Source of the DNA: Tubiluchus corallicola
Taxonomy: Eukaryota > Animalia > Priapulida
Direction: 5' to 3'
NCBI GenBank assembly: GCA_030141605.1
Contig: JAQGDQ010000602.1
Coordinates: forward strand, 62,001 to 126,000
DNA: 64,000 nt
The notes under the pieces are model-generated. The model did not search any database. It saw only the letters and a program-made list of their open reading frames with translations, and was not told where the DNA came from. Each line of letters begins with the position of its first letter. Position 1 is the first letter of the stretch. The position numbers and the translations under genes were made by a program. This document shows, piece by piece, positions 11,469 through 59,500 of the stretch.

Positions 11469-14400
11469 ATGGTAAAATTACAGAGACTGGAAATCCATTT
11501 CTTGAACAGCAATCAGTCATCTCCGGTTTTTTATGCTGGGCAGATCGTGTCCGGACAAATAGTTTTAGAGCTGAACAAACCAATGGAGATGCGAGGTAAA
11601 TTGCAATCAGTTTTTGCTTTTCGTAATAATAATTACTTGCGCATCATTAAACTCATAAACGTGCTTCAACTCGTTAGCATCAGTCATACTGATTATTAAC
11701 TCTCTCTGACTCCATTCAATGTAACTATTAATATCTGAGGGATAAATTTTGTTAGCGTGTCACAAGATATGGGCAGTAAAACATGCTGTAATTCGATAAC
11801 TTCTGCAAATTCTGTGACTTACTGGTACAAAAAAATTAAGTGACGTGTTAAAAATGGAGAATATGTACTTGCATAACAAAATTGTCTACAAGTTGGCAAT
11901 TAAGCTTTTCTAGTGATTTACGTATCGAATTTCCGAGGATCATTTTGATATCAAGCTCATTGCTCTATGTTATTTCTAAGCTGAGATAATGTACATTGAA
12001 GTTGAGGTGCAGGCTGCACACTGAAAAATATAATCTTGAGAAAATTGCTGTAAAAGTCAGCCATTGTTTCTGTGACGTTTCCACGCAAGTTTGTTTAAAT
12101 CCAGTAGATGGCTCTTCCTGGCAAAGATCTATGCTTGTCAAAAGAAAAAATCCAAAGCAAAATGACTGCTTTCATGAGTTACTATGGAAGTTTGGAAATA
12201 TGAGTTTTTTACAATTGTATTACTAGTGTCTAGCCAGAAAAATGGGTATGGAATTATAAAATCAGATTTTTAGTATTTTTTTACATTTTCTTGATAACTG
12301 TAAGCTAGAATATAAAAAGTCCAATATATTAGCATTTCTTTTTGTAAAAAAAAGCAAAAAATTGAGATTTCACAAAATTTTTGATGTATTTTACTTTGAA
12401 GCATGATAACATAGTTTTAACTATGCCGACTTATGGGCGGTTTTGATTTGCAAGCACACAAATTGTAGTTTGTGATTTCAGCTATTCGTGTTACGTTTGA
12501 CGGTTCGGCAAAAGTTCACTGGACCGAGACGAATGACGACTCTTCGGACTCGTATGACAGCAGTGAGAGCTACTTTCATGAAAAGATTACATTATTTGGC
12601 AGGCGTAAGTTTCCCCTGCAGGGCCAGCTTGCCCTCTCATTGTTTTGCCAAAATTTTAGCCACAGCCAAGTTTTTTGGTTGTTTTTAGGTTTTATTAACC
12701 ACCATATAGTGAAAGTTTCATGCTTCATGTGAAAGGCTTCTGTTTCATGAAAAGCTTGTACACAATAGGATCTGTGTTATTAAAGTGCTGGTCAGAAAAA
12801 TGGCAGTTTATCTGTATCTGTGTTTTCACGTTGCAAAAGTGCGTTTTTAATTTGTGTTTTACGTAAATTACTAAGGCCTATTGGCATATAAAAACGGTGC
12901 ATAAAAAACAACGAACTTGATATAATGAAGCTATTGTTCTTAAACCAAGAAGATTTAAGCATTTTGATGTTGATTCAAGTAATTTAGGTGTCACAGGTTT
13001 TGAATATGAAAGAGTATTGAGTTTTAACCCTTGCTTAAATATTTTTTGTGTAACCTTGTCAAATGTCAACTGCAAATGTTTTAGTAGGGACCTTTTTTCC
13101 AGATACCTTTGTTACATATGATTTTCATGTATTAAGTTATGGTATCATTTTTTACAAATTAGTTGGCAATGAACGACATCATTAATTAATAAGTAGATTA
13201 TAACTGCAAATGCCAGAATGTTCTTAACAATTGTGGTTTATTTCACAACAATTGTGGTTTGTTTCGCAACAATTGTGGTTTGTTTTGCAACAATTATTAC
13301 CCGTTGCAGATAACGAGTTAAAGAAAGATATGAGATGATGAAAAATTGTTGACTAGTCGCGATTTGAACCATAGACCTGGAATAAGTACTTCCTAGCTCT
13401 GGCAGCTGAGCTACTAGTCCAACATGACAGAGCAGCCATGAGATTTTCTGCTTGTATTAGAAGAATTTGATACCATGCTTATCCCCCTATTGTGGTTTGG
13501 TTACAGGTGGCGCTGTTGGATTCTGTGAAAATAATGGTAATATTTGTGAAATAAGCAACAGTGGTTTAAGAATGTTGTATCGTTTACTTTCATATACTAA
13601 TTAACAAAATTAAATTATTGTTTTTGTCATTATCTAGAGGAAGGGGAGTCAGGTGATTATGCCACGCTCGAGTCCGGACTGCACAGTTTTAAATTCCAAT
13701 ACACACTTCCCCAAGATTTACCCTCCAGTTTTGAAGGTGGTGACGGTTACGTCAGGTATACTGTAAAAAGTGTAATCGACAGGTAATACAAGTAAAAACA
13801 ACTAACAAAATTTAGTTAAAAACGACACAACTTTTTTAAAAACTTTTACATTAAAAAGTTAAAGTCATGCCAAATGTTTCAACAGACTACTGCTGTAATT
13901 ATCAGAAGAAAAAACTTAAAAACATACAACCAGTTTATAAAGGCAGAACCTATTATGCAGTAATTAAGTATTTAACAGAAGCCAAATAGGTAATGAATAA
14001 ACAGACCAGTAAAGAAATTGATACAGCAACTTAAGCACTAACTATCAATTTCTGTACTGGTCTGTTTATTCATTACTTATTTGGTTTCCGTTAATTACTT
14101 AATTAGTGCATAACAGGCTCTGCCTATATAAACTGGTTGTATGTTTGTAAATTTACCACTGATGATGACAGCAGCAGCTAGTCGAAACATTTGGCATGAT
14201 TTTAAGTTTTAACTTTTAATAAAGTTGTGTTGTTTTTAACTATAAATTGTTTTATGTGCCTGAATTAAAATTAAGTAATAGTTTGTTGTTTTTTTACCAC
14301 TAAAACTACTGATAACAAATGACTGTCGAGGATTTAGTTGTTATTATTTTGTTTCAGGCCATGGAAATTCAATCACACCGTCAAATCTCCATTCACAGTG

Positions 14401-17400
14401 CTCAGTAATCTAGATCTAAACACAAGGCAGGATTGTGCAGTAAGTTGAACAATTGTGTCAGTCTGGGAGAGGTGTGCTGCCTGAGTCGAGGCAGAATTGT
14501 GCAGTAAGTTGAACAATTGTGTCAGTCTGGGAGAGGTGTGCTGCCTGAGTCGAGGCAGGATTGTGCAGTAAGTTGAACAATTGTGTCAGTCTGGGAGAGG
14601 CGTGCTGCCTGAGTCGTTGCAGCGCTTGCCCGTCACTTTGTTACAACATCAGTCTGGGAGAGGCGTGCTGCCTGAGTCGTTGCAGCACTTGCCCGTCACT
14701 TTGTTGCAACATCAGTCTGGGAGAGGCGTGCTGCCTGAGTCGTTGCAGCGCTTGCCTGTCACTTTGTTACAACATTTCGTTTATATATAAACATGTTTAG
14801 AAATTTCTGTTTTTGGCTAGAAAAATTTGCCTATCAAGTCTAATGGTTATGTACATTTAATCATAGGCATTTATTATGATCTGAAAACCTCAGCTTGTAT
14901 TTTCCAGATCGGTGCCGCTGCTTCTGAGCAGAAGTTTGTTTGCTGTTTATGTTGCAAATCTGGACCTCTCCACTGCAGGGTTAAAATACCCCAAACGGGA
15001 TATGTTCCCGGACAACCGATTCCCATCACTGCTGAAATACAGAATGATACAAGTAGAAATTGCAAGTACAGCCAAGCAGTCCTGAGAGCTGTAAGTTTAG
15101 AGTGCAGTAAGCTCACCTTAAAGAATTTCTCCTCTTTCTTGAGAGAGAAACAGAGGAAAGGAAGTAACGGATGCGCAAGTTGATTAAGAAAATAGTATGG
15201 AGAAGACTTCTATCAACGTAGCATAAACACTGTTTTATTTTTGATTTTCATTAAAGCATATGTGAATCTATTTCAGACAACCAAGTTTAAAGCCACCACA
15301 AAGACAAAGGAGTGTACCAAAGAACTCTGTTCTCTGCGCAAGGGTGAGATACGTGGACATTGTTACGAATTTTGGACAGGGGAGCTTTTGATTCCTCCCA
15401 CACCCCCGTCGGAACTGATTCATTGTAGTATTATTGACGTTGACTACAGTCTCGATGTAAGTTGATTTAAAAACAATCTTTCAGTTTCCAATACAGTAAG
15501 TGCCATTTATTAGACTAGCTGTTAATAGATGCACTCACTTAACTGACTCATTGAAACATCTGGTGCAAGCCATTCCTATTCAAATGTATAGAAAAAGTGT
15601 TAATAATTGATTCAATTAACTCCACATAATTGGCTCAATGTTTTTCCTTCACGTACTTAAAATAAGATACTTGTGTGTGCCCAAAAAGCTTTTACTTTTG
15701 AAATGAAACAACCGACCGTGCATGATTTTTTGTAATTTTCAGTGGTCATAATCAGATTTGTGAGAATTTTTCATTTTCTTTTTTTATTAATTCACTTATA
15801 CGCATTAGTATTCTCAGTTAATAATTGCACATGGAAATTTTGACATTAATTCATTTCTATAGTTCATTTAAAGCTTTTGCTTTGCATAATAAGGTGATGA
15901 CTCATACTCCTATGGTAGTAATATGCTACACCCTTAATTGAATTAGTCGGTTAATTAGATCAAAACATTTCCATCGCAAAGTAAGTCTATTAAGTAGTGC
16001 CTACTGTACTTTGTGACTAGATGGGTTCAAATCTCGTGGTGGATAGTTTCTTTCGCCGTACCGATTTTGGCTGTTTATCTTGTTCCTGGAGGATACATAC
16101 CATCCGAACGTGACTAAAACACCTGCGGCCATTTTGTGGCTCGTCTTAGAGGGTTGTCTTTGATAATGAGCTAGGTTCCAATCTTGCCATAAGTATTAGT
16201 GTTTCGTATTGTAAATGTATTGATTGCTCAATTCCAGCTTGCATTGCATTAAATTATATTAAATAAATAAACAAATAATGGATTTTAAAGTTACACAATA
16301 ACAGCATGAGTGAGAACAATAAAAATAGCGCGAAAAAGTGAAACGAGACTTAAGCAGTAAAACACAAGATTATATGTGTGCTTGCAAACCAAAACCGTCT
16401 ATAAGTCGGTATAGTTAAAACTAAGTTACGATGCTTCAAACTAGAATGCATCAAAAAATTTGGTCCACTATCAATTTTTCGAATTTTGTAGAAACCAATA
16501 CTAAATATATATTGGACTTTCATATTCTAGCATTAATTTATCAGGAAAGTGTTGAAAAAACACCAAAAATTTAATTTTATAACTCCTTAACCCACTTTTC
16601 TGTCTAGAAACTAGTACTGCAATTGTAAAAAACTCTCATTTTCAAACTCTGGTTGTACCTTGTGGGAGCAGTCATTTTGCTTTGGGTTTTTTCTGTTAAC
16701 AAACCCAAATTTCGTCAGGAGGAGCCATCTACTGGATTTGAACATAACTTCAACGTGTTCTTGCAAAGTCTGTAGCAACCACACTTTTGTATGGTTGCTA
16801 AGTGTTTTGTAGAAATGCGACAAAAAACAATGGCTGACTTTAACAGCTTTTTTCTCAAGGTTATGTTTTTCAGTGCATAGCCTGCACCTCAACTTCAACG
16901 TGGATTATCTCAGCTTAGAAATAACTTAGAACCATGAAATTGGTATCAAAATGATCCAAATGAAATGGATATGTGAATAACTAGAAAAGTTTTGGACGAT
17001 TTTACTATGCAAGCACGCATATATGAGATATTGCTCTGCTATGCAAGCACGCATATGAGAGACATTGCTTTGTGCTTGCAAGAAAAATTTGAAAGAAGTG
17101 ATGTCACAATGTCAGTAGAGCAGTTTATAAGCTAATTGTAGCTGACATAATGTCGCAAACAAAACTTCAAATTCCGCATTGGCTTGCTAACAGCCGTTTA
17201 TTGTGTGAAAATTAAATAAAGCATTTTGCAAATACAGGCAGGATTACAAGATTATTATAAATTAGGAACCGAATCAAAATATTTAATTATTTGAGTGGGA
17301 ATTACAAAAATGTTCTAATTTGAAGAAAATTCTAAATGTAGAGATGCAAAGTAGAAAATGTTAAGCCAAATAGAAATAAACTTCCTTTATGCAATTTATG

Positions 17401-20400
17401 AATAATGAACGTATTGCACTTAACCTATATTGGCCAGCTTTCGCTTTTAAATCTTACAAGCATCAAATATAAACTGCAGAGAATCTTTACAATGTCTAGA
17501 TCATCATATCAGACTAGAAATTAAAAAGCTGATATCCAACATCTGGACAGTGTAACAGCCTACTGTCTTACTGCATTCTGCTAATAAACATTGAATCACC
17601 TGAGTATGTAAGTACGGGCTAACAAATTTAAATGTAGGCTTCACTCAATGCCTAAAAGGTGGCAGCACATGACAGTGTATCAGTTTATCTCCAATACCAA
17701 TTGTGACAAAAAGTAGCTTCGCATTACTATTTATAGTTCTAACTACAATAGACATTGCGAAACCCGAATAAAACACAGATTTTATTAATAATTATTAATA
17801 ACAATTAATAAGAATATAATAATAATAATAATTGATAAGAATAATAATAATAATAACAAGAAAAATTCTTCTGTTTTAGAAATCTATTTTGCTTTTATTA
17901 ACATGTTTTCGTAACACATTACAGGTTTCCTCTTTGGTGTGAACGTAAGAAATGCAGTCAAACCTCGTTATAACCCTACCTCCCCCCCCCCCATAATGCC
18001 AACCTCGCTTAACACCCATATTTTTAACGAAATAAAATGTCTATGTTTGCAAAGACATGTTTGTATTCATGCATCTTGTTATAATTCGGTGGTATATATA
18101 TATATATAAGAGTCGAGGCTACAGCTCCGACGATGGCAGCATTTGTGGAGATCTATATATTAAACGAATGGTCTCGATCTAGTGTCGTGCCATTGGGAGT
18201 TTATTTTTGAATCGGGCCCACTGGGACGAATGCGGGACAAAAAACCTCCAAAAATGGCAATTTTTTGGCCATTTTTTGCAAAGCTTATACCTCTTATTTC
18301 TGGAGAATGGGCCATGGGTGGTGCTGGCCATGGATAGATGGCCATTTAACAGTGGGTGTAGTAGGTGTATTTAAAATTCGCGAGAGGGCCACGGCGTCTC
18401 ACAAAGGGCGTTTTCCCGGACCCAACTTGCGATTTTTTCGAAATTTTGGTCAAACAGCCTGCAGAAAAAATGTTCTAGCGGCGCTTGGTGGAACTTTCGG
18501 AAGGAGATATATGGCTCTTTAGAAAGAGCAAGAACAGGGCTACACGATGATTGGGCTATATTTAGGACACATCCACCAAGAGGAGCGCCGACGAGTTAAT
18601 TAGATGTTCTATTTTTACTTGGAAAACTGCTGACGCAAAGCCATTGTTCTGGCGTCATCCATTATACGCTGCAGCTTGCTTTGCGTTATAAATGAGGACC
18701 ATGTAGCATGTTCGCGTACTATTGATTATAAGTGTATTTATACGCAAATTTTTTTGCGGGGCCTAGGCCAGTCTTGTTATAATGCCAAAGTCTTGTGATC
18801 GATATAAAGAGGTTTTACTGTATGGAACATCTTTTGATTAATTGATCCACGTGTCAGTATGAAATCTGTGTTTAATTGAAATCTTGTGTCATTGCTAAAT
18901 GTTTGAAACGGTCTGATAAATTTGTTACAATAAACCTTTTCATTGTGCACAGTTGCTGCAGGTCAAAGGTTAAGCGTATCAGCAAATCGTCTTAACTACA
19001 ACCGCCACGTGACATGTGGGTAAAGTAAAACTGTTTGCCTCATCAGCTCAGTAACTTCAGTTGCTTAACGTAAAATTTACTTAATTATTCATTAGTCTGT
19101 GCGTAGAGTGATATACTAGCAGTATCTTGCTTGAGAACAAGAAAAAATGAACTAGATAAGGTTCTAGCTAGCTGTTAAAACTGTTACTATTACAACAGCG
19201 TGAGCGGCGTCAAGTGTACACAAATACGTTGTCTGCCGAATGTCTGGTACACTTAACCTTTGACCTTTTCACAATCAATCGCTAGAACTGTGAAAGGGCT
19301 TATTACAACGGGCATTGCTTGTAACATTCTGTTCCAATTTTAAGCTTGATCAAATTGTTAGAAGTACAAGGTAGTACGATTGCTTATGCTAACAGGTAAA
19401 ACAGGAAAAAACTCTCATTTACAGGTGGATGTTAGTCCTTCTGGTCCGGCCTTAGATCTCACGGTAAAAATTCCGATTGTGATTGGTACGATTCCCCTCC
19501 GAGAGGCGTTCTCTTGTTTCACCTCCTCGTTTCCACCACAGCCAATGGGATTTCAAGAAGACAGAAACCAAACTCAACCGAACTCCGCGTTTCCACCGCA
19601 ACAAGCTCAGGCAATGGGATTTCAAGCAAGCGGAATGGGAACTGAACCGACTGCACCGTTACCACCTGGTTTTGAGAATTACCCGGATGCTCGTAAGTGT
19701 AGAAGTTTTAATTATTCAAAAGCAATTACTGTGGTGATGGTTGGTTAGTCAATTTAAAATGCTCAGTCAACGACTTATACAAAAACAATGATGAACCTGC
19801 ATTCTTAGGTAGTGATGTTAATGATAACGATATGTATCAATAGTTATTGTGTCGATAATTCCTGATTGTTGTATCAATTTGCAAAATTTGTTTTTATCAT
19901 TATCGCACAGATATTATATTATTCTAGCAATATCGCTATTGTATTGTATTTGGTACATATCACTGCTTATTGCTCACATTTATAAGATCGTTGCAGTTAT
20001 TCATTTGTGCAGGTAAGCTACAAGAAAACCGGATGATTGTGTAAACATTAGTTCAGAATAAAGAATGTTCTAAAATATTGAAAACTAGAATAGTTTTTTT
20101 AAATCAAAGCTTAGATTAAAGCTACACGCGGCTCTATGAATCTACTGACATTGGCAGTGGCGCCTTTTTGTCACATGCGCGTGGCTGACAAATAGAAGGT
20201 GGTACCGTAATAACCGTGATCATGAACTGCAGTGTTAGTGTCTAACGTCATATGATGTAAAGCCCATTTTCGTGACATCATGCGTTTAAACGTACTTGAC
20301 GCTCAAGTGAAAACGCCAGCCATTGCACAAATTGTGGTTTGTTTTTGATGTAAGCAATAGCTGCGTTCGGTTTCCGTTAATTAGCTTTCCATGCTAATTA

Positions 20401-30120: not shown

Positions 30121-33100
30121 TTAACAAAAGAATCCACGTGCATCTGCTCCATATAATATATAATCCTCGCGGGTTTTCCACGCAAATTGCGGAACACCAC
30201 GAATATAGCTAGCACCGATGACAACGTCCGACCTAGCGGACAGACTGTTGGCGTTACTGACGTTGATGAAGTCCGCATCTTCCGGACACAGCGAACGGAG
30301 GTCGAACAGTAGGCGGTTTGCAAAGCCTCTTAGCTGAGTGTTTCCACCTGAAAATAAGATAATGGTTACACAAATAGTCCATTCTGCTCACGTTTGATGA
30401 CATTAAATTCTTTACCTGTTCATGACTATGAAACCTTGCCAGAAAGTCAACTCTCCTGAATCAAGATCTGAATCTAAAGATGTCAAATTAAGAAAACGGT
30501 GCTAAATGAATAAATTTAGCAATGAGATAATGAGGTAAAATCAAGCACCACTGAACTACCTATTCACAGGTAACTTAGGAAGCTGGCGTTGCCACATAGA
30601 TGCTGAGGTTTCTCGCAAACATGAACACGTATTCTTTCTTCCGTATCCGATTAAACGTTTATGAAAATGCAACCAATGTCTCATAAGTAATGATGACTTT
30701 TCTTCGCGATGTAATAATGACACTTAATGTTTAGATGATACGACACAGTAACTTATTTTTAACGAAATAACGATACAGAGCTGCACGTGTGCAACTTCTG
30801 CATGATTTGCAATTAGTACACGTGCCAAAATTCAACATCGTGGATGGCACTGTAACATTGAAAAAGTTGTTCTAATGCGGCAGCAACATTGTGTAACAAA
30901 TATATGAACGAATGACAAGATTAAGGAAAGATTCAGGTGCTAATTTTTTTTCAAAAATATATGAGCAGAAAAAGGGAAACAAAAAATAAAGGAGCAGAAA
31001 AGAGAAGAAAACAAAAAATATGGGAGCAGAAAAAGAGAAAGAAACAAAAATATTGGAGCAGAAAAAGTGGAGGAAATAAAAATATTGGAGCAGAAAAAGA
31101 GGAGGAAACAAAAATATGGGAGCAGAAAATTGACGAGGAAACAAAAAATATGTGAGTAGAAAAAGAGAAAGAAACAAAAAATATGGGAGCGCAAAAAGTA
31201 AAGAAACAAAAAACCCTAGTCACAGTCAACCAGTCACGGTCACAGTCATGGTCAACCAATACACAGTTACCTGTTAGTGTAACATTTGACAAGAGATCAC
31301 GTTTGATTAATGGATAATAAGCAACCGCATCCAGTATCATTTGAGGTAACCCCAGCGTCTGATACATGCTCTCCGGTGCCATGTAAAGCTCGGTAGAAAG
31401 AGAGACTCCGTGTAGCTCTGATGATTCCCCTCCACGGCTTTCAACGTTCTTATCCTGAGATTTCCTAAGAATTTTCAAAGTCAAAACTGTAGATCATGGT
31501 AGGAGAGTAACAACATTTGGCTCCTTGTTAACATGTAATAAGAACAGTTGTGCAATGTGGTTGATGCAGTTACATGACATCTCTACGTCCTAATGCCCAT
31601 CATTAAAGGCAAAAATACTAATAAAATATAAGTAGATGTGCAAACGTCTAACTAGAAGTGTTTCAACAATTCACTCGTATTGACTCAAGCAACAGGAAAA
31701 AATACAATATAGCAGAGATTTAGGAAACACTTACATGACTGACTATACATACACATAGTTTTAGATTAATGTAAGATGCTTAAACGGCTGATTGTATGTG
31801 TATATAGTGTTTAACTTTGTGTGAGACACTTACATGGCTCAACAGATATATAGCATTTAAAGTTTGTGTGATACACTTACATGGCTGATTGTATGTATAG
31901 TGTTTTAGGTTCGTGTGAGACACTTACGTGGTTCATTATACATACATGCAGTTTCATTTATGCAAAATGCTTACAAAATCTGATCGTAGATGTATATAGT
32001 GTTTAGCTTTGTGTGAGACGTTTACATGGCTGAACGTGTGTATAGCATTAAAAGTTTATATGAGACATTTACATGGCTGATTATCTGTATAGTGTTCTAA
32101 GTTAGTGTAAAACACTTACGGGGTTTATTATACATACATGCAGTTTTAGATTTATTTTAGATGCTTACATCGCTGATCGTACACGTATATAGCGTTTAGC
32201 TTTGTGTGAGACATTTACATGGCTGAACGTGTATATAGCGTTTAAAGTTTGTAAGAGACACTTACATGGCTGATCGTACATATACTGTTTTAGCTTTGTG
32301 TGAGACATTTACATGGCTAAATGCGTATATAGCGTTTAAAGTTTGTAAGAGACACTTACATGGCTGATCGTACATATACTGTTTTAGCTTTGTGTGAGAC
32401 ATTTACATGGCTGAACGTGTATATGGCATTTAAAGTTTGTAAGAGACACTTACATGGCTGATCGTACATATACTGTTTTAGCTTTGCGTGAGACATTTAC
32501 ATGGCTGAACGTGTGTATAGTGTTTAAAGTTTGTAAGAGACACTTACATGGCTGATCGTACATATACTGTTTTAGCTTTGCGTGAGAAATTTACATGGCT
32601 GAACGCGTGTATAGCGTTTAAAGTTTGTAAGAGACACTTACATGGCTGATCGTACATATACTGTTTTAGGTTTGTGTGACTTAGATTCTTCTCGTGTGAT
32701 ATTGTATGCCAAATAGCACTCTGACTTGACCCTTTTAGCATCCAGACTGCCTACCGTTACCTGTGAAAGCAAGTACATCATGTTTCACGAAATATTACAA
32801 ACAAAATCAAATAGTTTATTGCATATGTTTTGTTCAGCAAGGTACACATCACGACAACAACTAACAACAACTGTACCATAAATTCACTCACTATGGACGT
32901 TACAGAAACGAAATTTTCATTTCGGTATGACGATAATTGCACTTTCGGTTGAGTTTCGTCTTCGTCGACAATTATTAGGTTGCGTAGCCAAAACTTTTGT
33001 AGCAGTTTTTCAAAATTTTAGTCATATTTACCCAGATTACCTTTTCTTTTCTCCTAGATGTTAAAAATCGCTGAAAAATTTTGACTAAAATAATTCAGAT

Positions 33101-36100
33101 AAAGTTTAACTATCGATCATTTAACTTTTTCTTCCATTTGTATCATGCTTTCTACGGCAATGCGGGACATCTTCAGTACTGATGACTCCAGGCATAATTA
33201 ACGGAAATATAAATGCATAATTTAAATAAAACTAAGCTTAATTTCATAATGTACGAAGATATAGGTAACTGAATATTTACAAAATAAAATTTGTCAATTT
33301 TTTTGAAGCTTTATAATATTTAATCGTACACACTGTTCAATTTTTCAGGTTAGGACTTAGCTTAGCTATTAGCCAAGCTTGTATCAGAGCAAATATAAAC
33401 AACAAAGTATTTTACTTATTTCAGATTTTGTTTCAGTTTTGATAATAGTTGTTTTTTGCAATAATAATTTCGGTTCGGTTTCGTTTCTGTATGTTTCTTA
33501 TGTTTCATAAATTTCGGTTTGTAGTTTCAGTTTGATTAACATCCGTGACACTCACTACTGAACTTCTGCTGTGATCAACAATGGCAAAAATCAATGCTTA
33601 TTCAATTCAATCACATATATGCATAAACAGTTACATGCCTTCTCTAGGCGATTACTAGTCTCGATGCACTGTGCCAGATACTGAGCCACGTAGTAACCGC
33701 CCACTGGCTTATGTTGAACCGTCTCCGGATTCAGGGCGTGCTTTACAATAGGAGCTACGACGGTGTGAAAAGCTCCACTGTCCACGACTAAGCAGGTTTC
33801 TCTACCGGCGTACAGCGATATTGCACGGGGTTTCTCTATGAGACACACCCTAAAATGAACTACACTTTAGTAAATTATATAAGAGTCGTACAGTAGTAAC
33901 ACATTAATGCTCCAGGTCACAAAAACACGTCATCGCAAACGTTGCGGAATGTGACGTGAAAGAAGTTTGTCTTCTTAATGGGAAGGAGAAGCTTCCTGGG
34001 ATGTTAGGCCTATTTTAATGCTCCTAAAAACGTTAAAAGAATTTAGTAATAAAAGTGTGATAAACGCTTCGTGTCATTAGTAAAATCACTTTAAAATAGC
34101 TAGGACTCCTGGGATGTTAGGCCTGTTTTAATGCTAGTGAAAAAAGTTAGAAGAATTTAATAATAAAAGTGTGATAAACGCTTCATGTAATTAGTAAAAT
34201 TACTTTAAAATAGCTAGGACGCTCCCATTTTCAATGCCCATTCTTCCATCAATGATGTCATTCACTGGCTGTTGGTGTCAATTGCTCTTAAGATTATAAG
34301 TTTTTAAAAAAATTAGATGGCCACTTTTGTGATATTAAACGTTAGATAACTTGCAGGAATTTGAAATAGTTTAAACAGCACGTCAGGGCCGGAACTAGAT
34401 GTGGCAAGCAGGGGGGGGGGCGCAAAAATTTTCAGGGAGGGTGAGGTATCCGAAGTGGTTAAATAATGGTTAAGCCAATTTTTAACCTCTTTTATACTGC
34501 ATGCAGGCCTATAATTAGCATGTGTGTAGGATGGCGTAGCGGACAGAGCAATAATGAGAAAACTAACTCTCAGTTAACCTAACTTTATTAATGTGCCTCT
34601 AACTAAATTGTTATTTACAGAAATTTATGACACACAAGTTTTAAGAAAATAATACACTGAAGCTCTTATGAAAAGTCACAAAGCCCACCAGTGCATGGCG
34701 GCCGCCATTTCGCCGGGAAATTTCTATACAACGGCAGTGTAAATTAACTTCATGCTTAATAAAACAGTTTCTTTGCAAATTTATTTGTTATATTTTTCTA
34801 AATTTAAGTGATAGCAGTAAAATAAATCCAACACACTGAGTGACTTGTTTTTTCCTTTAGCAAACCACAAACAGTTTACGTGATAACAGTAGAATAAACC
34901 CAACATACTAACTGACTTGTTCTTTCCTTTAGCAAACCACAAACAGTTTAAGTGATAACAGTAAAATAAACCCAGCATACTGAGTGACTTGTTCTTTCCT
35001 TTAGCACACCACAAACAGTTTAAATGATGACAGTAAAATAAATCCAACACACTGAGTGACTTGTTCTTTCCTTTAGCACACCACAAACAGTTTACGTGAT
35101 AACAGTAGAATAAACCCAGCACACTGAGTGACTTGTTCTTTCCTTTAGCACAGCACAAACAATTTAAGTGATGACAGTAAAATAAACCCAACATACTGAG
35201 TGACTTGTTCTTTCCTTTAAAGTTAATTCAAACAATTTTTTTGCAAGTTTAAGTTTTTCATACATACTATTAAACTAGATCATCTACAAAGCTCCATGGA
35301 ATCTTTGGCTTATGAAGAAAATCAGTCTTACTTTTGGTCTCAACACCAGACTACTATACGATGTTCAAATGCTCAGTCATATAATATAGGTCAACATGTA
35401 ATCTGTTTTTTTTTCATTTAATTGCAAATTACTTTATAGGAAGTTTGGGGGTTGAGCTTTGCTTCCATCATGATTTTGTGTTTTTGGCTAGCGTTGCTAC
35501 GGATACACATTTTTGACATACAGCGAACACCGCATATCATCAAATATTTTCTCAAATTAAATTCCGGATTTGGATTACAACAGAATGAGTTAGCTAAATT
35601 TGAATTGAATTTTGCATCAGTTCGGATAATGAAAATAGTAAATGTTTGCAAACTTTAGCGTTTTCATTTAGACTTAACTGATCCTAGCTAACACACTTTA
35701 GAAGCTTTTGAACAAAATGTGAAAGTAGAATAAATAAATATCTCAACAAAAAACAAAATAATATAAATATACATCAACTTTGATGTTGCTACAATTATAA
35801 ATTTATTTGTAATTCAACTCAGTGAGTTTGGCAGTTATGGAAAATCTTTAGCTACTCTAAATGATCGTATGTTATGCGCTACCATGTGAAGATACACCAT
35901 ATTACCACATGCAAACGGAAAGAAACTGTGCGTAGATTTTCGTGAAACACAAACGTAGCCTAAAATGATCTCCGAGTTTTTTGGTACTATTTTATTTATT
36001 AATTTTTGACTGTTGAATTACCGTTTACAATAACACATTATGAAAACTGGATAGCAAACAATTGCAAATATCGAGGTTTTGAAACTACCAAATAATATCC

Positions 36101-39100
36101 GATACAAACTGCGGAATCTCGCGAATATCACGACTTTCAAATTTGAAACGGATATCCATAGCATCACTAGTTGAGGCATTGTTTTCAGTTTAAGCAACGC
36201 AATCGTTATCTTAACTTGACCTTGCATTAGCGTGAAACTTGACCTTGACCTTGCCTACGATCATTTAGAGTAGCTAAAGATTTTCCATAACTGCCAAACT
36301 CACTGAGTTGAATTACAAATAAATTTATAATTGTAGCAACATCAAAGTTGATGTATATTTATATTATTTTGTTTTTTGTTGAGATATTTATTTATTCTAC
36401 TTTCACATTTTGTTCAAAAGCTTCTAAAGTGTGTTAGCTAGGATCAGTTAAGTCTAAATGAAAACGCTTAGCGTGGAACAGTGTCAAATTAAGATTATGC
36501 TTAAAAATAACAGTACTGTTTCCATAGGGTACCCCAGTAATTACCCGCATTGTTTATTTCCTGAGCCTAATATGTCTACTCTGTTCCAACAATGAAAATA
36601 CTGACATTATTTGTGATAAGATAACCATTGTTAGACAATCTAAATGCCATTTTCTGCTGTGCACTTCTACAGTAGATACCTGCTAACAAGACTATTAAAC
36701 TGCTGCACTGGCAGTGCGTCAGGGTAATAGCAAGTAGGGAGATGGCAGATCAAACCATTTTTGCTGTAGGGGTGACTTACAAAAAAAAACTACGATTTCT
36801 TTACTAAGATGTTAATTACCTAGATTGAATTGTTTATTAAAATTTAAAGACCTATTTCAGGCCACTAACAAAGACACGAACAAACAGACGGTGACGTTTA
36901 GCAGCACAAAAAAGGGATAATATAGATTATTTTATTCCACTAATATCTACACTATTAATAGTGCTCAGTGCGATACTACGTATTTCTTGTGTGGGGAAAA
37001 CAATAACTTTAGTGACTCACAGCTTGTGCATTCAGCCTTTCATAGCGTAATAAATTAATGTTTGTTGTTAACATAACAGTGCAGTTAGTTAAAATGTACC
37101 AGTGGTTGTTTTTATTTGTAAATATAAATCATTACAGTTTCTTCACTGCCGCTGAATCTTAACAATCGAGTACCCAACGGGTATAAGTAAAAGGGTACCT
37201 GAGTCTGATTTTTGCTACCCGTGTAAATGCTATTACCGATATCATGTAGTCAAGATAAACTACAGATTATGCAGATTAAATCTGAATTAATTATAAAAAT
37301 AATTAAGTATAGTACCAGTACTCTAACACACCTTTGCACTTTTAACTTCTCAAACAGTATCCTGAGTAGTTCCCGTCTTGACTCACGTGAGCACAGTATA
37401 GGTTCACACATTATAACGGGAACGTTCCACACTTGCAGTTCGTCTAGGTCTCTCCGTACCTAAAATGTAAGAAAATTAAATTGTGCAAAGACGACGCGAA
37501 ACACAGGATTCTTGATCAGATGAAATAAATATGATGGTATCATTCAGAAGAAGGCACAAGACCCCGTCAGTTTAAATCTTACGGATTTTAACGACGTGTT
37601 ACATTATGACAGATGCTGTCATAACTCTAATATGACATCACACATAAAAAGGGAGCATTCGGACGTTACTAGTGGATGGAAGTAGTGAAGTTGGTAGACA
37701 AAAGTGACAGAATATATTAACAAATTTTTTAGGCATATGTTAAAACACACAAGGCCTGAAAAGATTCATTGACGGACCTATCGTGAGATCTTTTATTACA
37801 ATATAGGTATCGCCAAAGTGCACTTGTAGTGTGATAACCTGAGTCAAGATATTTATCAAATTAGTACGTGCTTGATGCTATGCTAATAAAAACGACGTGA
37901 AATAATTCAAGCTGCAGCTGTAAAGCGCCAAAAACTTGTCAAATGCCATACACGAATCAGAAAATTTTTGCAAAATCAAATGCAATACATGAATAAATGA
38001 ATCAGACCGTTCAAAACAACTTTTAAATGTAAAATATTGACATGTTTTGCTTTTCTGGTGGTTTACAATGCAAACAATATTCTACTCCAGGGCTGTGCAA
38101 ATTGTGGCCCACCGAGAGAATTTGTGCGAAGAGATTTGTCAACCTAATGAAAGTGCGGCCCGGGTGATTAATTGAGTGTATCCAGCTGAAGTCTGTGCCA
38201 CGATCCCAAAGATAGTGCGGTCAGTTTTTTCTACTAGATCGGATGCCATTAACCCTTACAAGATGGTTGTTTAGCTTAATGTCACTGTACTACACAGACT
38301 GTGTGATACACATTACTAATATGCATTGTAATGAAATTACCACTATCTGTCCTGAAAGTAGAAATATATGGTTTGTAATATAAATTTTAATAACTTCTTA
38401 AATAGTTTCTTGAGTGTAGTAGTAATGATGTACGCAGGTCGGATGCAACAAATCGTTATCAGACCTTTCTGTACTTTGCTCCTTGATCAAACTGCCTGTG
38501 GCCTGCAGGAATTGTGGAAAAATTTAATGTGTCCTGGCTAGTCAGATAATTTGCACACCCCTGTTCTACACATTATACATGTGATGATTGATGATGATGA
38601 TTGATGAAACATGTCAATATTTATTATCAACGGCTTCATCTAGTTTTTTATAAAATCTTAAAACGTCAACTCAGGAGTATCGTGACACGTAACATAGACC
38701 GGGATCTAGGTGTATAATTACCACCCTAAAATACACATCATTAAAACAGCATCACGTGAACGGAACCAACATTACCATAGACATGAGATGTCGAATAAAG
38801 AACTCCATGACTGCCGGATGACGAATGCCGTATTGAGTAATCGGGGGAATTAGTTTGAACTGATATGATGTTTCGGAGTCTTTAGAAATAATCTCCATTT
38901 CTTCCTGAACCTGGAAACGACAAGCCACTGTTAGTCTTTGAAATTTCCAACAAACAAAAATCAATTTTTCACTAAAATTTGATTAGACATTAAAATGAAA
39001 TTCCTTTTAGACAAAACAAGTTCAGTTATTCAATCTTGATGAATTTTTTATGTAAAATAAAATGTTACATCATTCAAAAACTTTCGGCTTTTCGGCTAGC

Positions 39101-42100
39101 TTCATTCATGTGCATGTGCAATTTTGCTTGTACCAGCTTGCATAATCGTAAATTTATTTTAAGATACAGGTTACCGTTGACTTACGATTGTTCAACTTTA
39201 CGAATTACTCAATTAATTAATTGCACAAAACTAATAATGACTCAATTTTCCTTCCTTTTGGAGTAAATGAATTTTAAATCTGTTTCGATAAATTCATCCA
39301 CAGGCGTCGACATACTTAGTGTGTTGTACACACACAACTTTTTATGTGTATGGGTGCACCACATGAAAATACGTGTCCGACTTGTGTCCAAGTCCGCGGG
39401 AACAGATTGAGGTCAGAGACTACCTACTAAAAATCGATTTATCAGTTTTTTGCAGCGGAGTATTAAATCCTGAAAGCTGGCTGCACACCACATGCAAAAG
39501 TAAACTAATAGGGCTAGAGTGAGCTAACTCATAAATTTGTCATTGTTACTTACTGAATGCAAACTAACATAATTTCTGATTGGCAATTCATGTTCGGCTG
39601 TATCGACATCCACCGAGGCTTGCCGAGGAACCTGAAAACCAACAATGTCTTCTATTTCTTCATCTACCATGGCATTGTTTCCATCATCGTCGTCGTCATC
39701 GACAACGATGATGTTTTCTAGCACGGTCTTTGGAGAGGTGGCTCTGCGATCGAGCAATTCGTCGTAATATGCGTCGCAAAGAGGCATGCGGTCCCCGCTT
39801 CTGCAAAAGAAACATTCCGGAACGATCGGCAAGTTCCGACTGCTCCTTGGATCGGATATGTTCTCCGGAAGCTTCGGGCAGGCAACCAGAGACGGATGTG
39901 TCCTCAACACCATACGATCCTGTTCTTCATCTATGTACTTCGCCCAGGAAGTCTTACCTCCAAAGTCTAACACGAAAGCAAATTTCCAATTGACAATGCA
40001 GTCGATATCACAGAGTTGTTTATCGCACGCTGAACATCGCCATGCGTGTACGGTCGTGCCTCGATACACGCACCACAGTCGCCTTACCGCATCACGGTAA
40101 CAACGAACGCAAGCAAAACTGTTGTGTGGAATTTCTATACCTTTAGCATCAGAAAAATGTACAAACTTTTTCTTCCTAAACAAAAAACAGAGACTGTTAG
40201 TGGAACAGCATTTCAACAGTACACAAAATAACAATATAGACTCAAAGTCACCACAGGTCTGGACTAGCCCATGTGGAATTATGGCGACATTGTATGAAAT
40301 TAAGCAGCGATATTTGACAATCTCTTCCATCAAAGAACTTCAGTCGTTTACTAGGTAAGATAAGAAAACGGAAGTATCTTGGAACACTATTATTAAGCTC
40401 ATGCAACTGTACAAACTTTCATCAAGAAGGCATAGAATTAGATGATCTTCCCGAACTCCAGGAAGACATAAATGATCTTCCTGAAGTTTCCAACAATGGC
40501 AAGCCTGTTTGCAGATGACACTAAAATAGGGAAAAGCATACTGCCTGGATGATTTTGAGGTCATGCAGAATAATATTAACTATGCTGACCAATGGTGTCG
40601 CCAATGGCAAATGGAATTGAACACCGAAAAATGTAATCTCCTGACTATTGGAAGGCATGATATTGCAGGTCGTACATATAAAATGGCACATGGACAAAGT
40701 TCTAAAGAAGTCACAAAAGAAAAATATCTGGGTATCACCATAGACAGTAAGCTTAATTTTCAAGCACATATATTCAATGTTGTTAATAAAGCACATGGAA
40801 GACTGACTTTAATCAAACGTAGTTTCTCTTATCTTGACAGATATATGGTGACCAAACTATATAAATCAATGGTTTGTCCTATCTTGAATTAAATCATCAA
40901 GACATGATAAGGAAAATTGAAAGTGTACAACGTCGAGCTCCTAGACTCGTACCTGCTATTTCTCATTTACCATATGCTGCAAGACTTAAGATTCTGGGCC
41001 ATTCAACTCTGAAGTACAGATGCAAAAGGCAAGATTTAATTCAAACGTTTCACACCATTAAAGGTATAGAAACCATCAACAGCGAAATATTTTTCCATCA
41101 ACAGACATACCATGGTACCAGAGGTCACTCCTACAAAATCAAGAAGAGAACAGTTCCCCAAAGGCGGAGTAGACGGAGGTTCACATTAGCAAGACGAGTA
41201 ATTAATGAGTGGAATACGCTGCGTGACACTGTAGTTCAAGCCTCCAATCCTGCTCAGTTTAAGTCTCATCTCAATAGACACTGGAAATGCAATCCTGAAA
41301 AATATATAGACCCCAGTTTGCCACAATGGCAACAAGAAACCTTGTGCTAAGCTTCATGATCACAGTGTGGCCACCTATTTTGTTCACTTTTTATGTATTA
41401 ACAAAGTAAACAAGGAAAAGTGGAGAGGTCCATAAGCTATTTATGCTTAACCTCCATCGTTCGACGGCAATGATAACGGTAAAAGACTCATGAAAACAAA
41501 GCTTCACAGATGTTTACTCTGATGAATTTAACCACAGTAAAATCAACATCTACACAGGGCATTACATAAGTGCATTGTTTGTTTGGATGGAATGTTTTTT
41601 TTCCACTGATTGTCTAATTAAGATTTCTTACACAACAGTCAATTTGAAAAACATGTTATTAGTAATAACTCAATCACCAGAGAGACACAGAACTAAAAGT
41701 AAGCCAAGAAATAGACATCAAGATTATTGACAGTTTCTACAAAATGTTCAGATACAAATCTGTTGTTCTCACTACTGCAATGACACCTGGAATTCGTTGT
41801 CAGAAAATGCAATGAGAGTTGAACAAAGGACAAATTTTAAACATAAACTCATGGTAAATACTTATTGTTATGCAAAACTTGATAAACACTAAGAAACCTG
41901 TATACTGCGAAGTGGCATACTGGGCCATTAACCATGCCACTATACAAATACAAAAAGCCATTTAGAGCTAGTAAAGATTCACAATTTGTGAACCACAAAA
42001 TAGTAAGAAGTCCATGACAATTTAATAACGCTAGCTAAACTAAAGACGAGACGACCGAGTTAGCGTGTTCAGTGCTCGTTAGTTCAACATACCAAACAAA

Positions 42101-42229
42101 ATCCGACTGTAAATTGTCACGAAACACTTTACACGTTATAGATAATCTACAAAGAGATTTTACGTCACAGTAAGTAAAAATCTTCAATAATAATTCCACA
42201 GGTAAGTTTTGCAAATTTAAATCAGCCAT
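30121..42229 (-). CDS. F-box + Cys-rich segment + divergent actin-fold protein, 8 exons, ~590 aa
   Basis: Exons 42229-42093 (F-box LQNLPVELLLKIFTYCDVKSLCRLSITCKVFR..W), 40175-39554, 38910-38776, 37459-37332, 33849-33639, 32760-32642, 31464-31271, 30347-30121; total 1773 nt, open, phases consistent. Actin motifs in order: VLDFGG, PSLVACP, PITQYG, PVIMCEP, SLYAGRETCLVVDSG, VKSECYLA, MAPESMY, LSNVTLTGGNT..GF..RL, VIGAS, TREDY. The exon 2, 5 and 6/7 junctions are less certain. Confidence 0.88.
30962..31212. repeat. Purine-rich ~30-bp tandem repeat in intron 7 of the F-box/actin gene
   Basis: GAGCAGAAAAAGAGAAAGAAACAAAAATATGG-like units. Confidence 0.85.
31725..32680. repeat. 94-bp (46+48) tandem array seeded by the exon-6 3' end and donor
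   Basis: CTTACATGGCTGATCGTACA at 32261, 32355, 32449, 32543 and 32637; more diverged copies toward 31725. Confidence 0.93.
34800..35218. repeat. 72-bp tandem repeat, ~6 copies
   Basis: CTGAGTGACTTGTTCTTTCCTTTAGCA recurring every 72 bp (24-aa periodic ORF). Confidence 0.95.
35657..36468. repeat. Perfect 213-bp inverted repeat with a 386-bp spacer
   Basis: 35657-35869 is the reverse complement of 36256-36468 with no mismatch seen; no flanking TSD. Confidence 0.95.
38088..38563 (+). mobile_element. hAT (Charlie-like) MITE
   Basis: CAGGGCTGTGCAAA ... TTTGCACACCCCTG; TSD TTCTACTC / TTCTACAC; same family as 62607-63037. Confidence 0.85.
40340..41480 (+). mobile_element. CR1-like LINE 3' fragment (degenerate RT), antisense in intron 1 of the F-box/actin gene
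   Basis: LFADDTK, WQMELNTEKC, EKYLGITIDSKLNF, LYKSMV.P.L, IESVQRRA, TRGHSYK, RVINEWN; frameshifts and stops. Confidence 0.88.
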
Positions 42230-53500: not shown

Positions 53501-56500
53501 GAGTCAACAGCTGTGAGTGCACTGCAAAGATTTTTAATGGATTTTAGAAACTAAGTACAGTCAACCCTCGTTAAACCGGACTAATTGGGGGGGGGGGGGT
53601 CCGGTTTAGCCGATTGTCCGATTTATCCGATATGCCTATATATGGTCTATATTATACAGGAATAATAACCTTAATAAGGCCTACATACATTGCACTATAT
53701 ACTATACCGTATATTACTTTAAAATAGTTAACCTGTGAGGATACAGAAATTATTGTACAGTTGGTAGGCCGTGTTGTGTTTAGCGCTCCGCTATTGGACG
53801 GAAATCGGTCACTTTCCTTTACCACGGATGACGTCCGTCTTATCCAATATCCGAGCTAACGGAGTCCGAGGGTCGACTGTAATGTCTAAATGTCTTTGCA
53901 CAGTTAAAAATTAGAGAAAATATTTTAAAATATTAGTTTATATGAGTGAATTAAAATTAAAAAGTATAGTTTTCTAAATCACACAAGTACGTTTATTTGC
54001 AAAAATGACAAAAATTTCTTCAAAGTCGGCTGCTTCATCTTATCACAAGAACTAAGTGATTAAACTTTCGGGTAAAAACATACTGCTGAGCAAGTGATTA
54101 AATGTTTAGCTTCCAGGAATTTTTGGGTAACGAAGTTAATTGCAATGGACGGGCAGTCAAAGCAAACCATTAGGCTATTATAATTAGGATAGGATAAACG
54201 TTCCTTCTTACAAACAAAACGGTACTTAACATGATTGTTTCTATGTATATTATAAGACAAAAGCGAACTAAGATGATATAAAAGCCATAAAAGCTTATTA
54301 GTCATATAAAAGTGTCTTATTAAAGCACATGAAGCAAAAATATTGAGTCAATTATGCGGAGTTATTTGAATCAATTACTGACAGTTTTTATGTACATTTG
54401 AAGAGAAGTGGCCCGTACCAGGGCCGTAATATTAATTTATATAAGTGAATTAGCAATAAAGTAAAAAGTATACTTTTCTAAATCACACAAGTCTGTTTAT
54501 TAGCAAAAATTTCTTCGAAGTCAGTTGCTTCATTTTATCGCAAAGAAGTACTGAAAATCTGTTGTTGTAAGATGCAAGAATCTTTGTAACATGCTTAGTG
54601 CTTGGCGTGCTTAAACTGTTGGAGGTGCCCGTGTTTTCCCGCAAGTAGTTTTGCCCAAGTTTCGCTTGCTATAATTGTGATATACTTACTGTACTGTACC
54701 TGCGTCCTTAATCAGCAACATCTAACTGATTAAAATTTCGGGCAAAGACAGTCAGGACGTCAAAAGCAAACCGCCAAGCAAGTGATTAAATGCTTAGCTT
54801 CCAGGAATTCTTGAGTAACAAGGTTAATTGCAGTGGACAGGCAGGCCACAGCAAATAATAAGGTTATAATGATTAGTGTATGATAAACGTTACTGCTTAC
54901 AAACAAAACGGTACTTAACAATATTGTTTCTATGTATATTATTGGACAAAAGCAAACTAAGCTGATATAAAAGTCATAAAAGCTTATTAGTCACATGAAA
55001 GTGTCTTATTGAAGCATGTGACATAAAGATAATTGAGTCAATTACGCGACAGTTTTTATGTACATTAGGATAGAAGCGGTCTGTACCAGGCGTTTTTGAG
55101 TCAATCAAGTGATTGAATCTATTAACCGTGAGTCTATTAAGTGGCGCCAACTGTATCAATTAAATCTCTTGCATGTGAGTGCTGTCTTATTGCACATAGG
55201 GCTTGCATCGGCAGCTAGGCAATATAAAACTCAAAAAATTAAATTCCTGCGATGACCACTAGGCACCATCATTTTAACAGTAGGTTGTTTGAAACAAGTT
55301 TAGACAACATTGCATAAAGTTTGAAAGAGTAATCAGCGTATTCGTAGCAGGCTCTTCACTAACTAAGCTACTTTATAAATTACTTTGTAATGTCAATAAA
55401 ATCAATAATATGTTTTTTGTGTATCAGTGGTGCACACTGGGATGGCAGTACAGAGAAATTTTACTAATTAGCACGGATATTTTAAATTATTAAGATTTTC
55501 TTTTTCTAATCATATAAGTCTAGCAAACACGTAAACATAATGATAAGCAATATAACATATATGGAAATTCTTTGCGATAAAATGACAAACTTCATGAAAC
55601 GGAATTTTTAATTTGTACCGAGAATTCGGTTCAAGTGACACAATAATTCAAGTTGCAGATTTCGAGTTACACAATGTTCGTTAAAGGACAAGAAAAGGGG
55701 TACCTGAAGCAGGTTTCAGAAAAATCCCCTTAAAAAATTATATTGCTTTACAGCAATTATATGCGTATATCTTGCTCGCACTGAAAGGAATTTTAGTTTG
55801 TTTTCATTTTAAATCTCCCGCAATACTGTTCCGTAGTCGCCATTACATGACGTCATGCACCAAACGTAAATCAAAGGAAGAAAAGGCAATGTTAAATTAT
55901 GTCTCTAAAGATTTTCCGTGTAAATCTATATTACTTAGATTTTCGCTTACCTGCTAGAAAGATTTATGTAACTAGAAAAGAAAATTATTAATTATTTAAA
56001 CTGTTTTCACCAATTGGTAAAATGTCGCTGACTCACCCTCCAGGGTGCGCCACTCGCTAACAAAAAAACATATTTTTAATCTTATTTACAAGATACAGTA
56101 ATTTTAAATTTTATTTAGTTAGTGACGCGTTACGAATGCTCTGATTATTTTTTCAAACTTTACAAAATGTTATCTAAACTTGTTTCAAATGACCTGTCGT
56201 GACAATGGCTGCATCTAACGGTCACCACGGGAGTTTAAATTTACACGTTTTATACAGCGTTACTGCCGATTGAAGTCCTGCATGCAAAAAGGCAGTAAGT
56301 AAGTGATATAAAATTTCAAAACGAATTTTTTAAGCTTTATGTTTATGAAGGGTTCTCTTGCGCTTTAAAGGGAAAATCCCTTCCAAGAGATCTGTTCGAG
56401 ACACGCAAGAATTCGAGTCATACGAGTTGTACATAGTTTAATGCATTACGTATCAGAATCTTTTTCACAAACAAACCTGGATGATTTGAGTCAACTTCTG

Positions 56501-59500
56501 CTGCTGTGCTGAGAAATGTTGGTTCATCTCCTGACGATTCAACTGTTGTTGCTCAGCAAATTTCTCGCGCATATCAGCGACGGCTTTGCCCACATTTTCC
56601 TGTCGAATTTCCTCCATTTTTTTGTTTAGTGAAAGCAGTGCAGCTTCTTCCTAAATAAATGAAGATAATGGAAATTTATCAAGTAAGTAACGTGATAGAC
56701 TGGTCTGTAAAGATGCAACATCGTGTCTTTTAATACTGCATGCATATCGCCAAAGTGTGTTAGTGTGCTCGTGATAATCTGAGTCAATGATATTTAGCAA
56801 ATTAGCACGCCCTTTACCAAATGCTAATAAAAATGGTGTTGAGTAATTCAACTTGCAGGTGTAGCGTTTACTGTAGATACGTAACAATCAGTGCAGTGAG
56901 CAGTAGTTGACTTGACACAGGCACTGCTAGCAGCCAAAGCGGTTGAAAATGTAAGGTGTTTAATCTGCAGTTAGCTAATTACATTGTTTGCATATAATAA
57001 ACTTGTGAAATGGTAAACATGAATCAGAAAATGCACAAGTCTCTTTAAACTACTTAGACCACCTAGTCCATTAAGACTACTTAGACCACCTAGTCCATTA
57101 AGACTACTTAGACCACCTAGTCCATTAAGACTACTTAGACCACCTAGTCCATTAAGACTACTTAGACCACCTAGTCCATTAAGACTACTTAGACCACCTA
57201 GTCCATTAAGACTACTTAGACAACCTAGTCCATTAAGACTACTTAGACAACCTAGTCCATTAAGACTACTTAGACAACCTAGTCCATCAAGACTACTTAG
57301 ACAACCTAGTCCATCAAGACTACTTAGACCACCTAGTCCATTTAGACTACTTAGACCACCTAGTCCATTAAGACTACCTAAACCACCTAGTCCTTTAAAA
57401 CTACCTAGACCACCTAGTCCATTAAGACTACCTAAACCACCTAGTCCTTTAAAACTACCTAGACCACCTAGTCCATTTAGGCCACTTAGTCCATTTAGAC
57501 TATCTATGCCACTTATTCTATTTAAACTACCTAGACCACCTAGTCCATTTAGACTATCCAGACCACATAGTCTATTTAAACTACCTAAACCACCTAGTCC
57601 ATTTAGACTATCCAGACCACCTAGTCTATTTAAACTACCTAGACCACCTAGTCCATTTAGACTATCCAGACCACCTAGTCTATTTAAACTACCTAGACCA
57701 CCTAGTCCATTTAGACTACCTAATCCATCTAAGCTACCTATACCACCTAGTCGACTCAGACTACCCAGGCCACCTAGTCTATTTAGACTATCTAGACCAC
57801 CTAGTCTATTTAAACTACCTAGACCACCTAGTCCATTTAGACTATCCAGACCACCTAGTCTATTTAAACTACCTAGACCACCTAGTCCATTTAGACTACC
57901 TAATCCATCTAAGCTACCTATACCACCTAGTCGATTCAGACTACCCAGGCCACCTAGTCTATTTAGACTATCTAGACCATTTAAGCCACTTAGTGTTGCC
58001 AGGTGAAAATTTTCAAAATTCTAACAACGTGTTCACATCTCTCATACATACAAACACCCGTAAATCTCACCATGAACTAAAAAATATGTTTACGGTTCAC
58101 TGGAATTGCGAGTTAAATGTTAAACATGCTGTATACATTCTACAAATTGAGGCTACGATGTGAAGAACAATTTGACAAAGTAAAGAAGAGCTACTTACAC
58201 TAGCAACAAGAGATTCAATGCGCTGCAGTTTCTCTTTTTCTTCCGAGTTCGACTCCATTGCTGTCAGTAACTCATTCACATTCTGTTTCACGATTTCTTG
58301 AACTGAGACAATAATGAGTTAACAGAATTATGTGCTTACAATATCCTGCGTATTAGACTATTTAAGTAACAGCTGCTAGCGTAACCAGCAAAGAAGCACC
58401 AGCTCTTTACCAGAAACACCCAGCCGGTAAAATTTTCAAGCAACAAATAATGTGCATGGCAACTGGCAGGGACATTTAGGATTAAAAACACAACTGTCTG
58501 CGACCGAAATCATTGAAAAACTTCTCTAGTTTACATGATTTGATTTGATTTAACTCTTTACTTCGAACTAGGTTCATAAAATACATAACATACAATACTT
58601 ACAAGACATACAATAATTATAACCCCTCCTCTCAACACATACAAATTAATAAATAAATAAATAAAATAACAGTACAGTATATATACAATATCATACTTCT
58701 AGCGTGAATCGTCACCCTTAATTTCTACCTAACACTTTCCTCTCTGATGTCTGGACGTGTAAAATGCGTCACTGTTATTCAATGCCTTTATAAGAACATT
58801 TGAGCTTTGCATTACTCTACTGTATAGACTGTATGCAGTTTTCCTATGTATTACATCAAAGTATAAAACATTGTGGTCTACTGAAATGGTCCTAGAACTA
58901 TAATCATATGGGTAGTTGAAAAGTTTGCGTTTTGCAATATTGTGAGCTACTTTAAGTTTGCTGAGACTGTAGTTATAAAAATGTCGCCAGGTGGCCATAC
59001 CGTAGAAAGAATTACAATAAGAGTTGAACAGATGAGTTTTGACATTAGGTGAACAATGAATGTTAGCTATGATTAATATTTAATATGAATGTAACTTTAC
59101 AATCAAACCTACTCTGGGACAGCAAAAAAGAGATGAGATTAAGTGAGTTTGGCATTATAACCGGGTGCATTGATACATGCATGTCCATGCAAATACCGAC
59201 ATTTTGTTTTGCCAAAAAATGGGCATTAAGCGAAATTGGTGCTGTAACAAGGTTGGACTGTACTTTTACTATAGAGTTAAAATACATTTTGTCAACCAGA
59301 AAGAGGGTTTTGTTTCAAATGTCTTCTATGTATACTAGTGGTTCTTAACCTGGGTTCAATCGAACCCTAAGGGTTCGGTGAGTCGATCTCAGGGGTTCAG
59401 CAGAGCCTCCTCTTATCTTTGTGAGCAATCCTTTTCGAGGATGCTGGACATAAAAACGTAGAAAAGGAACAGACTTTGCTGTGAAAATGACATGAGAGTG

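Follow-up and report, generated by a model that had tools for sequence, protein, structure and literature searches.

In this study, we report the analysis of a gene that is predicted to fuse an F-box to an actin-related domain, located in a 64,000-nucleotide stretch of the genome of the priapulid Tubiluchus corallicola (contig JAQGDQ010000602.1, positions 62,001 to 126,000; hereafter the window). The gene lies on the minus strand at window positions 42229-30121. In the splice model its eight exons join into a frame of 1773 nt, which encodes a protein of 590 amino acids (aa) and is closed by a single terminal stop. A sequence-only reading of this DNA had proposed eight phase-consistent exons forming one such frame, and the proposal was borne out; all of the motifs named in that reading are present in the spliced protein. 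The exons are as follows:

Exon 1, 42229-42093, minus strand: aa 1-46; start codon and F-box, phase-2 GT donor
Exon 2, 40175-39554, minus strand: aa 46-253; carries the Cys cluster, beta strands resembling phosphate-1 (VLDFGG to THPS), a second group of Cys and the acidic insert
Exon 3, 38910-38776, minus strand: aa 254-298; the insert ends here and the actin fold apparently resumes
Exon 4, 37459-37332, minus strand: aa 299-341; actin subdomain 1 core, Pfam Actin E 0.12 when taken alone
Exon 5, 33849-33639, minus strand: aa 341-411; degenerate phosphate-2 loop, GC donor at its end, Pfam Actin E 1.1e-8
Exon 6, 32760-32642, minus strand: aa 412-451; within the actin match
Exon 7, 31464-31271, minus strand: aa 451-515
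Exon 8, 30347-30121, minus strand: aa 516-590; GG of the adenosine loop, a C-terminus resembling that of actin, and the stop; Pfam Actin E 0.029

All seven acceptors are AG, each preceded by a pyrimidine-rich stretch, and six of the seven donors are GT. Intron 5 (33639/32760) is best read as a GC-AG intron, the GT alternatives bringing either a poorer acceptor or extra residues. GC content was 45% in the coding sequence compared with 31-37% in the introns. Because between 9 and 27 splice-site pairs per intron leave the frame open, an open frame is weak evidence when taken alone; the gene model is carried by the colinear actin alignment across the splice joints and by the mostly silent sequence differences described below.

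Repeated sequences were also found within the gene. A tandem array at 31801-32679 (47/94-bp unit, 18.5 copies) starts inside exon 6 and repeats the end of this exon together with its donor. The motif around the exon 6 donor occurs 12 times in the array, and the donor of the first copy, the sole copy donor within 45 nt of the joint examined, keeps the frame. Intron 4 carries a perfect 213-nt inverted repeat (arms at 35657-35869 and 36256-36468, with 386 nt between them), which may be either a recently inserted element or a product of the assembly. Intron 1 contains a broken fragment of a LINE reverse transcriptase on the plus strand, antisense to the gene (40530-41350, RVT_1 E 0.0018).

Exonic differences were scored in two public sequencing runs, X1 and X2. 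Among those listed, 17 of 18 were synonymous (p about 2e-7), where about a third would be expected of transitions. Run X2 contributed 14 synonymous differences out of the 15 listed, in exons 2 and 8 (24 differences occur in its two exonic pieces), and in run X1, for which the listed differences only were used, all three were synonymous and lay in exon 7. By exon, the synonymous share of the listed differences was 7/8 in exon 2, 3/3 in exon 7 and 7/7 in exon 8; none of the 18 falls in exon 1, which carries the F-box. Since 17 of the 18 differences are silent, the frame in exons 2, 7 and 8 is under purifying selection. Those non-repeat pieces of X2 that were listed fall on exons 2 and 8, one of them beginning at the exon 2 donor; this was not counted as evidence of transcription.

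The N-terminal F-box claimed in the sequence-only reading was confirmed by profile comparison, exon 1 matching PF12937 (E 3.3e-11, 43.2 bits, cut-off 24.3) and PF00646 (E 1.2e-9, 38.2 bits, cut-off 20.5), both above the Pfam cut-offs. The best PDB match of exon 1 was the F-box of FBXL2 (E 0.021). The pairing of F-box (PF00646/PF12937) and Actin (PF00022) profiles that the reading had anticipated was likewise recovered when Pfam was run exon by exon, with four of the eight exons (2, 3, 6 and 7) giving no match. An in-frame stop lies two codons upstream of the exon 1 ATG. Exon 2 has no Met ahead of its phosphate-1 segment, and an upstream exon is therefore needed.

The actin relationship is clearest in the second half of the protein. 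Residues 311-580 are colinear with actins across exons 4-8, a region that includes four splice joints, and this held for all 14 actins tested. Pairwise identity to these was 21-26%, with a best E-value of 5e-20 and spans of aa 279/313-578, and a profile of the 14 scored 62 bits, aligning aa 310-578 with actin positions 104-366 only. The reference set, also used for residue mapping, consisted of 14 full-length genes from viral-collection contigs (L003-L016); the encoded actins are 369-381 aa long and, among the pairs listed, 66-100% identical to one another. Exon 5 alone exceeded the Pfam Actin cut-off of 27 with 34.6 bits. Its best PDB matches were Arp4, Arp9 and ACTL6A (E 0.02-0.06), and that of exon 8 was Arp1 (E 1.4).

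Further upstream, the segment from VLDFGG to THPS was placed against the first three actin strands by motif alignment. This phosphate-1 segment, which was picked by eye, scored 27.4 against 18.4 +/- 2.6 for shuffled sequences, 3 of 300 shuffles scoring as high; hhalign gave E 0.2, and for the counterpart segment of P0001, the exon 2 relative described below, 20 of 300 shuffles scored as high. At the exit from subdomain 2 (exon 3 region) no alignment above chance was obtained (190 of 300 shuffles as high). AlphaFold2 models of exon 2 were too poor to use, whether made from exon 2 alone (pLDDT 34.4) or together with P0001 (40.5), and a Foldseek search returned no match at E 0.001. Support for the first part of the actin fold is weak, and subdomain 2 appears to have been replaced by the acidic insert. 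The complete actin fold proposed from sequence is likely, but is demonstrated for the last three quarters only: the claim stood for aa 311-580, whereas the phosphate-1 segment is weak and subdomain 2 could not be aligned. Within the aligned part, Y354 (at the Y143 position) and a hydrophobic C-terminal helix are kept, and G168/Y169 are replaced. In actin, Y143, G168/Y169 and the C-terminal helix border the cleft that separates subdomains 1 and 3, in which a helix of many binding partners is accommodated.

The nucleotide site was compared using canonical actin numbering, which was verified against the residues of reference actin L013. In the profile alignment, five positions are replaced (Q137 by P348, D157 by A367, G158 by F368, V159 by H369 and H161 by V371), and D154, G156, G301 and G302 are kept. 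In the motif alignment, S14, G15 and K18 are replaced by G119, K120 and W123, and D11 and G13 are kept. Q137 and H161 are catalytic in actin and D154, G156 and D157 bind nucleotide or metal, according to a source that also covers the roles of S14 and G15 in this site (PMC3510490). Because the Q137, D157, G158, V159 and H161 positions and those of S14, G15 and K18 are all replaced, ATP hydrolysis is unlikely, and the earlier suggestion that the protein is possibly nucleotide-gated is left unsupported by the same replacements. Nucleotide may be bound without being hydrolysed, given the six kept residues; D11 and G302 are described as important for ATP binding in Arp2/3 (PMC2171590), and human Arp8 is described as binding ATP tightly despite replacement of both Q137 and H161 (PMC3510490). 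With its catalytic and phosphate-binding residues replaced and its identity at 21-26%, the protein is not a conventional actin.

Two groups of cysteines and histidine stand out in exon 2:

C93-x2-C96-x4-C101-x3-C105 cluster, 39998..40036, minus strand: all four Cys kept in P0001, which is identical at 11 of the 16 residues of aa 91-106
H139-C145 region, 39860..39898, minus strand: H139, C145, C167 and C170 kept in P0001

The first group is likely to bind zinc, and the second is a possible further zinc site. The spacing of the first is reminiscent of HIT and MYND fingers. No profile match to HIT, MYND, transposase zinc ribbon or RING was obtained for the Cys cluster, and none of five sub-segments of the Cys module matched a Pfam zinc-finger family. 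The best PDB matches of the region were L37A (E 0.11) and the Mdm2 RING (E 0.23), both through C68/C71. Three cysteines, C71, C81 and C179, are not kept in P0001. The Cys cluster noted from the sequence (CVRC, CSAC, CDIDC) was thus recovered in the spliced protein, but its CVRC pair is not kept in the sole relative and, C71 being replaced there, is not the conserved part. The acidic insert (about 120 aa, with 28 Asp/Glu against 11 Lys/Arg) separates the phosphate-1 segment from the rest of the actin fold.

A search of 1,835,955,588 representative proteins with exon 2 gave one match up to E 0.001, named P0001 (E 1.8e-37). P0001 is a 172-aa open reading frame (ORF) on one 2836-nt Logan contig and the sole member of its cluster, and it covers exon 2 only. 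Over aa 72-187, 69 of 119 residues are identical; conservation is highest in aa 107-146 (30 of 40 identical), a block that includes K120 and W123. P0001 starts with an acceptor-like sequence at the same place as exon 2 (FFVCFR/RKK compared with LCFLFR/KKK), and its first 30 residues are unlike an F-box (994 of 1000 shuffles scored as high), which is what a read-through intron would give. P0001 has the look of an orthologue's exon 2 frame preceded by such an intron.

No plant or protist protein was matched by exon 2 among the same representatives. The family would therefore seem to be narrow, a conclusion that is provisional because the sensitive search used exon 2 only and eukaryotic genes with introns are under-represented; moreover, no other part of the protein resembles actin less than exon 2 does, so a search with it could miss remote orthologues. 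Word-index protein searches returned 1360 candidates for exon 2, five for exon 5 and one for exon 1, none of them significant, which is weak evidence. The best score in the ESM Atlas for exon 2 was 0.78 and was unusable. When the exon 2 alignment was used to scan viral sequences, none of 73 matched. Scanning metagenomes with exon 5 let 2 of 261 stretches through, and both were rejected as chance matches in phage DNA.

The sequence-only reading knew of no characterised protein with this architecture, a statement contradicted by Arabidopsis ARP8/SUSA2 (At5g56180), an F-box and actin protein that is described as plant-only and that binds the SKP1 protein ASK1 in split luciferase and co-immunoprecipitation assays (PMC7562919). 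SUSA2 does not need four predicted nucleotide-binding residues to work, the G258A, K313A and G399A/G400A variants still complementing, and no substrate is identified in the accessible part of that paper (PMC7562919). The priapulid protein shares with it the order of domains, in which the F-box is N-terminal and a divergent actin domain comes after it (PMC7562919, PMC11096116), and fits the same model of an SCF receptor whose actin fold would bind the substrate without the predicted nucleotide-binding residues. The differences are also considerable. SUSA2 is described as about 30% identical to actin, with the actin domain making up 70% of the protein, whereas the priapulid protein has 590 aa and 21-26% identity; in addition, the latter has its conserved Cys module and its acidic insert (about 120 aa), neither of which is described for SUSA2 in the accessible part of the source. 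No animal F-box-actin protein was found in the literature consulted, including the accessible parts of PMC12146513, PMC10607326, PMC8291977 and PMC2938197. The locus is thus an apparent F-box and actin gene outside plants, with a Cys module of its own and a rewired ATP site.

Among other actin relatives, the nuclear Arps (Arp4/ACTL6A, Arp7, Arp9 and the INO80 Arp8) resemble the priapulid protein in having a divergent actin fold, large inserts and a changed active site, but the similarity is far below the level of orthologues and the exon 5 matches are weak. To our knowledge, the nuclear Arps have no F-box. Plant ARP8 is reportedly nucleolar, as the title of a 2008 paper has it. Drosophila Arp53D is likewise a lineage-restricted actin relative with an N-terminal extension (PMC8291977); its extension, however, is described as an unstructured 40-aa tail and the protein as closer to actin, while in the priapulid protein the extension consists of the F-box and the Cys module.

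F-boxes bind SKP1, and the remainder of an F-box protein binds the substrate. The best explanation of the gene, and one that we consider reasonably probable, is that it encodes a protein predicted to serve an SCF ubiquitin ligase as substrate receptor, its actin-derived body being unlikely to split ATP. The earlier proposal, in which an actin-related domain forms the basis of a candidate SCF substrate receptor, thus survives as the best reading, with SUSA2 as its precedent in plants, and loses its nucleotide gating and the novelty of its architecture. In the mechanism we envisage, the F-box would dock on SKP1, and the actin-derived body would offer a rigid surface for holding target proteins without splitting ATP. 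Zinc bound at C93/C96/C101/C105, and possibly at H139/C145/C167/C170, may clamp the F-box linker onto the first actin strands. Subdomain 2 and polymerisation would have been lost, and the cleft that subdomains 1 and 3 form could capture a helix of the substrate.

Independent origin of the fusion seems more likely than descent shared with plant ARP8. Our fuller proposal is tentative: an animal lineage may have invented an F-box and actin receptor independently of plants, in which a zinc-clamped, dead actin would act as bait, drawing actin-binding proteins by actin's own cleft towards destruction. We regard it as fairly unlikely that a protein working by the same mechanism parted long ago from plant ARP8/SUSA2, or from other eukaryotic F-box-actin proteins, after an ancient, non-convergent fusion. 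The domain order, identical to that of SUSA2, speaks for common descent, whereas the exon 2 search, with its single match up to E 0.001 and no plant or protist protein, speaks against it, as do the Cys module and acidic insert, absent from the available descriptions of SUSA2. A form of this idea in which a hydroxylase part was lost finds no hydroxylase exon upstream. No 2OG oxygenase or hydroxylase domain was matched in 92 ORFs of the window (89 of the 192 listed and three further), including all those upstream of 42.2 kb, and because of this result and of the in-frame stop before the ATG we conclude that the gene has no hydroxylase part.

Two other explanations deny the protein a role in substrate destruction or break the gene apart. 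A structural subunit of a nuclear complex, comparable to Arp4, Arp7 or Arp9, binding ATP or nothing and using its F-box for SKP1 docking or for its own turnover, is an improbable alternative to which the Arp4, Arp9 and ACTL6A matches of exon 5 do lend some colour. Nuclear Arps typically carry large inserts and have a rewired active site (PMC3510490). These exon 5 E-values are weak, exon 8 is closest to Arp1, no strong basic cluster is present (only KKK at 47 and KRVK at 420), and the HIT/MYND-like spacing, which would suit a nuclear subunit, comes with no Pfam zinc-finger match. Most improbable of all is that the F-box exon is not joined to exon 2, so that a divergent Arp with another first exon would lie beside a stray F-box. 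No exon-exon joint was present among the joints listed for X1 and X2, no RNA run carrying the locus was among the listed runs, the LINE fragment sits inside intron 1, and 11 other ATG-started phase-2 candidates occur at 40.2-46 kb. Against this, exon 1 ends, in the phase 2 that exon 2 requires, with the closing Trp of the F-box, and left unspliced it would yield a peptide of only 64 aa; nine of the 11 other candidates have 16 codons or fewer. Exon 1 is the one of these 12 candidates with a known domain, the Pfam domain scan having covered exon 1 only among them. We therefore predict the splice joint between exons 1 and 2 with high confidence.

Although the pairing of an F-box with actin is not itself new, a second and differently built example beyond plants suggests that the actin fold may be a reusable substrate-binding module of SCF ligases, beside WD40, LRR and kelch domains. 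Surfaces kept in both the plant and the priapulid proteins would then indicate the substrate site. With this gene, the lineage-restricted Arps also gain a member that carries a new cysteine module.

Other features were identified in the window. A spliced arrestin-domain gene at about 13601-19745 on the plus strand points toward the F-box gene, and its closest solved relative is ARRDC3; alpha-arrestins are adaptors of ubiquitin ligases, and no link to the F-box gene is claimed. A THAP-domain, P-element-like transposase is split across four overlapping frames at 7767-10278 (plus strand). The arrestin-domain gene and this transposase, like the LINE fragments and the kilobase length of the introns, would be in keeping with an invertebrate genome. 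On the minus strand, 56468-56650 is a probable coiled-coil exon of another upstream gene, with a Filament match below the cut-off and no useful PDB match, and it is adjoined by a long low-complexity repeat at 56971-58163.
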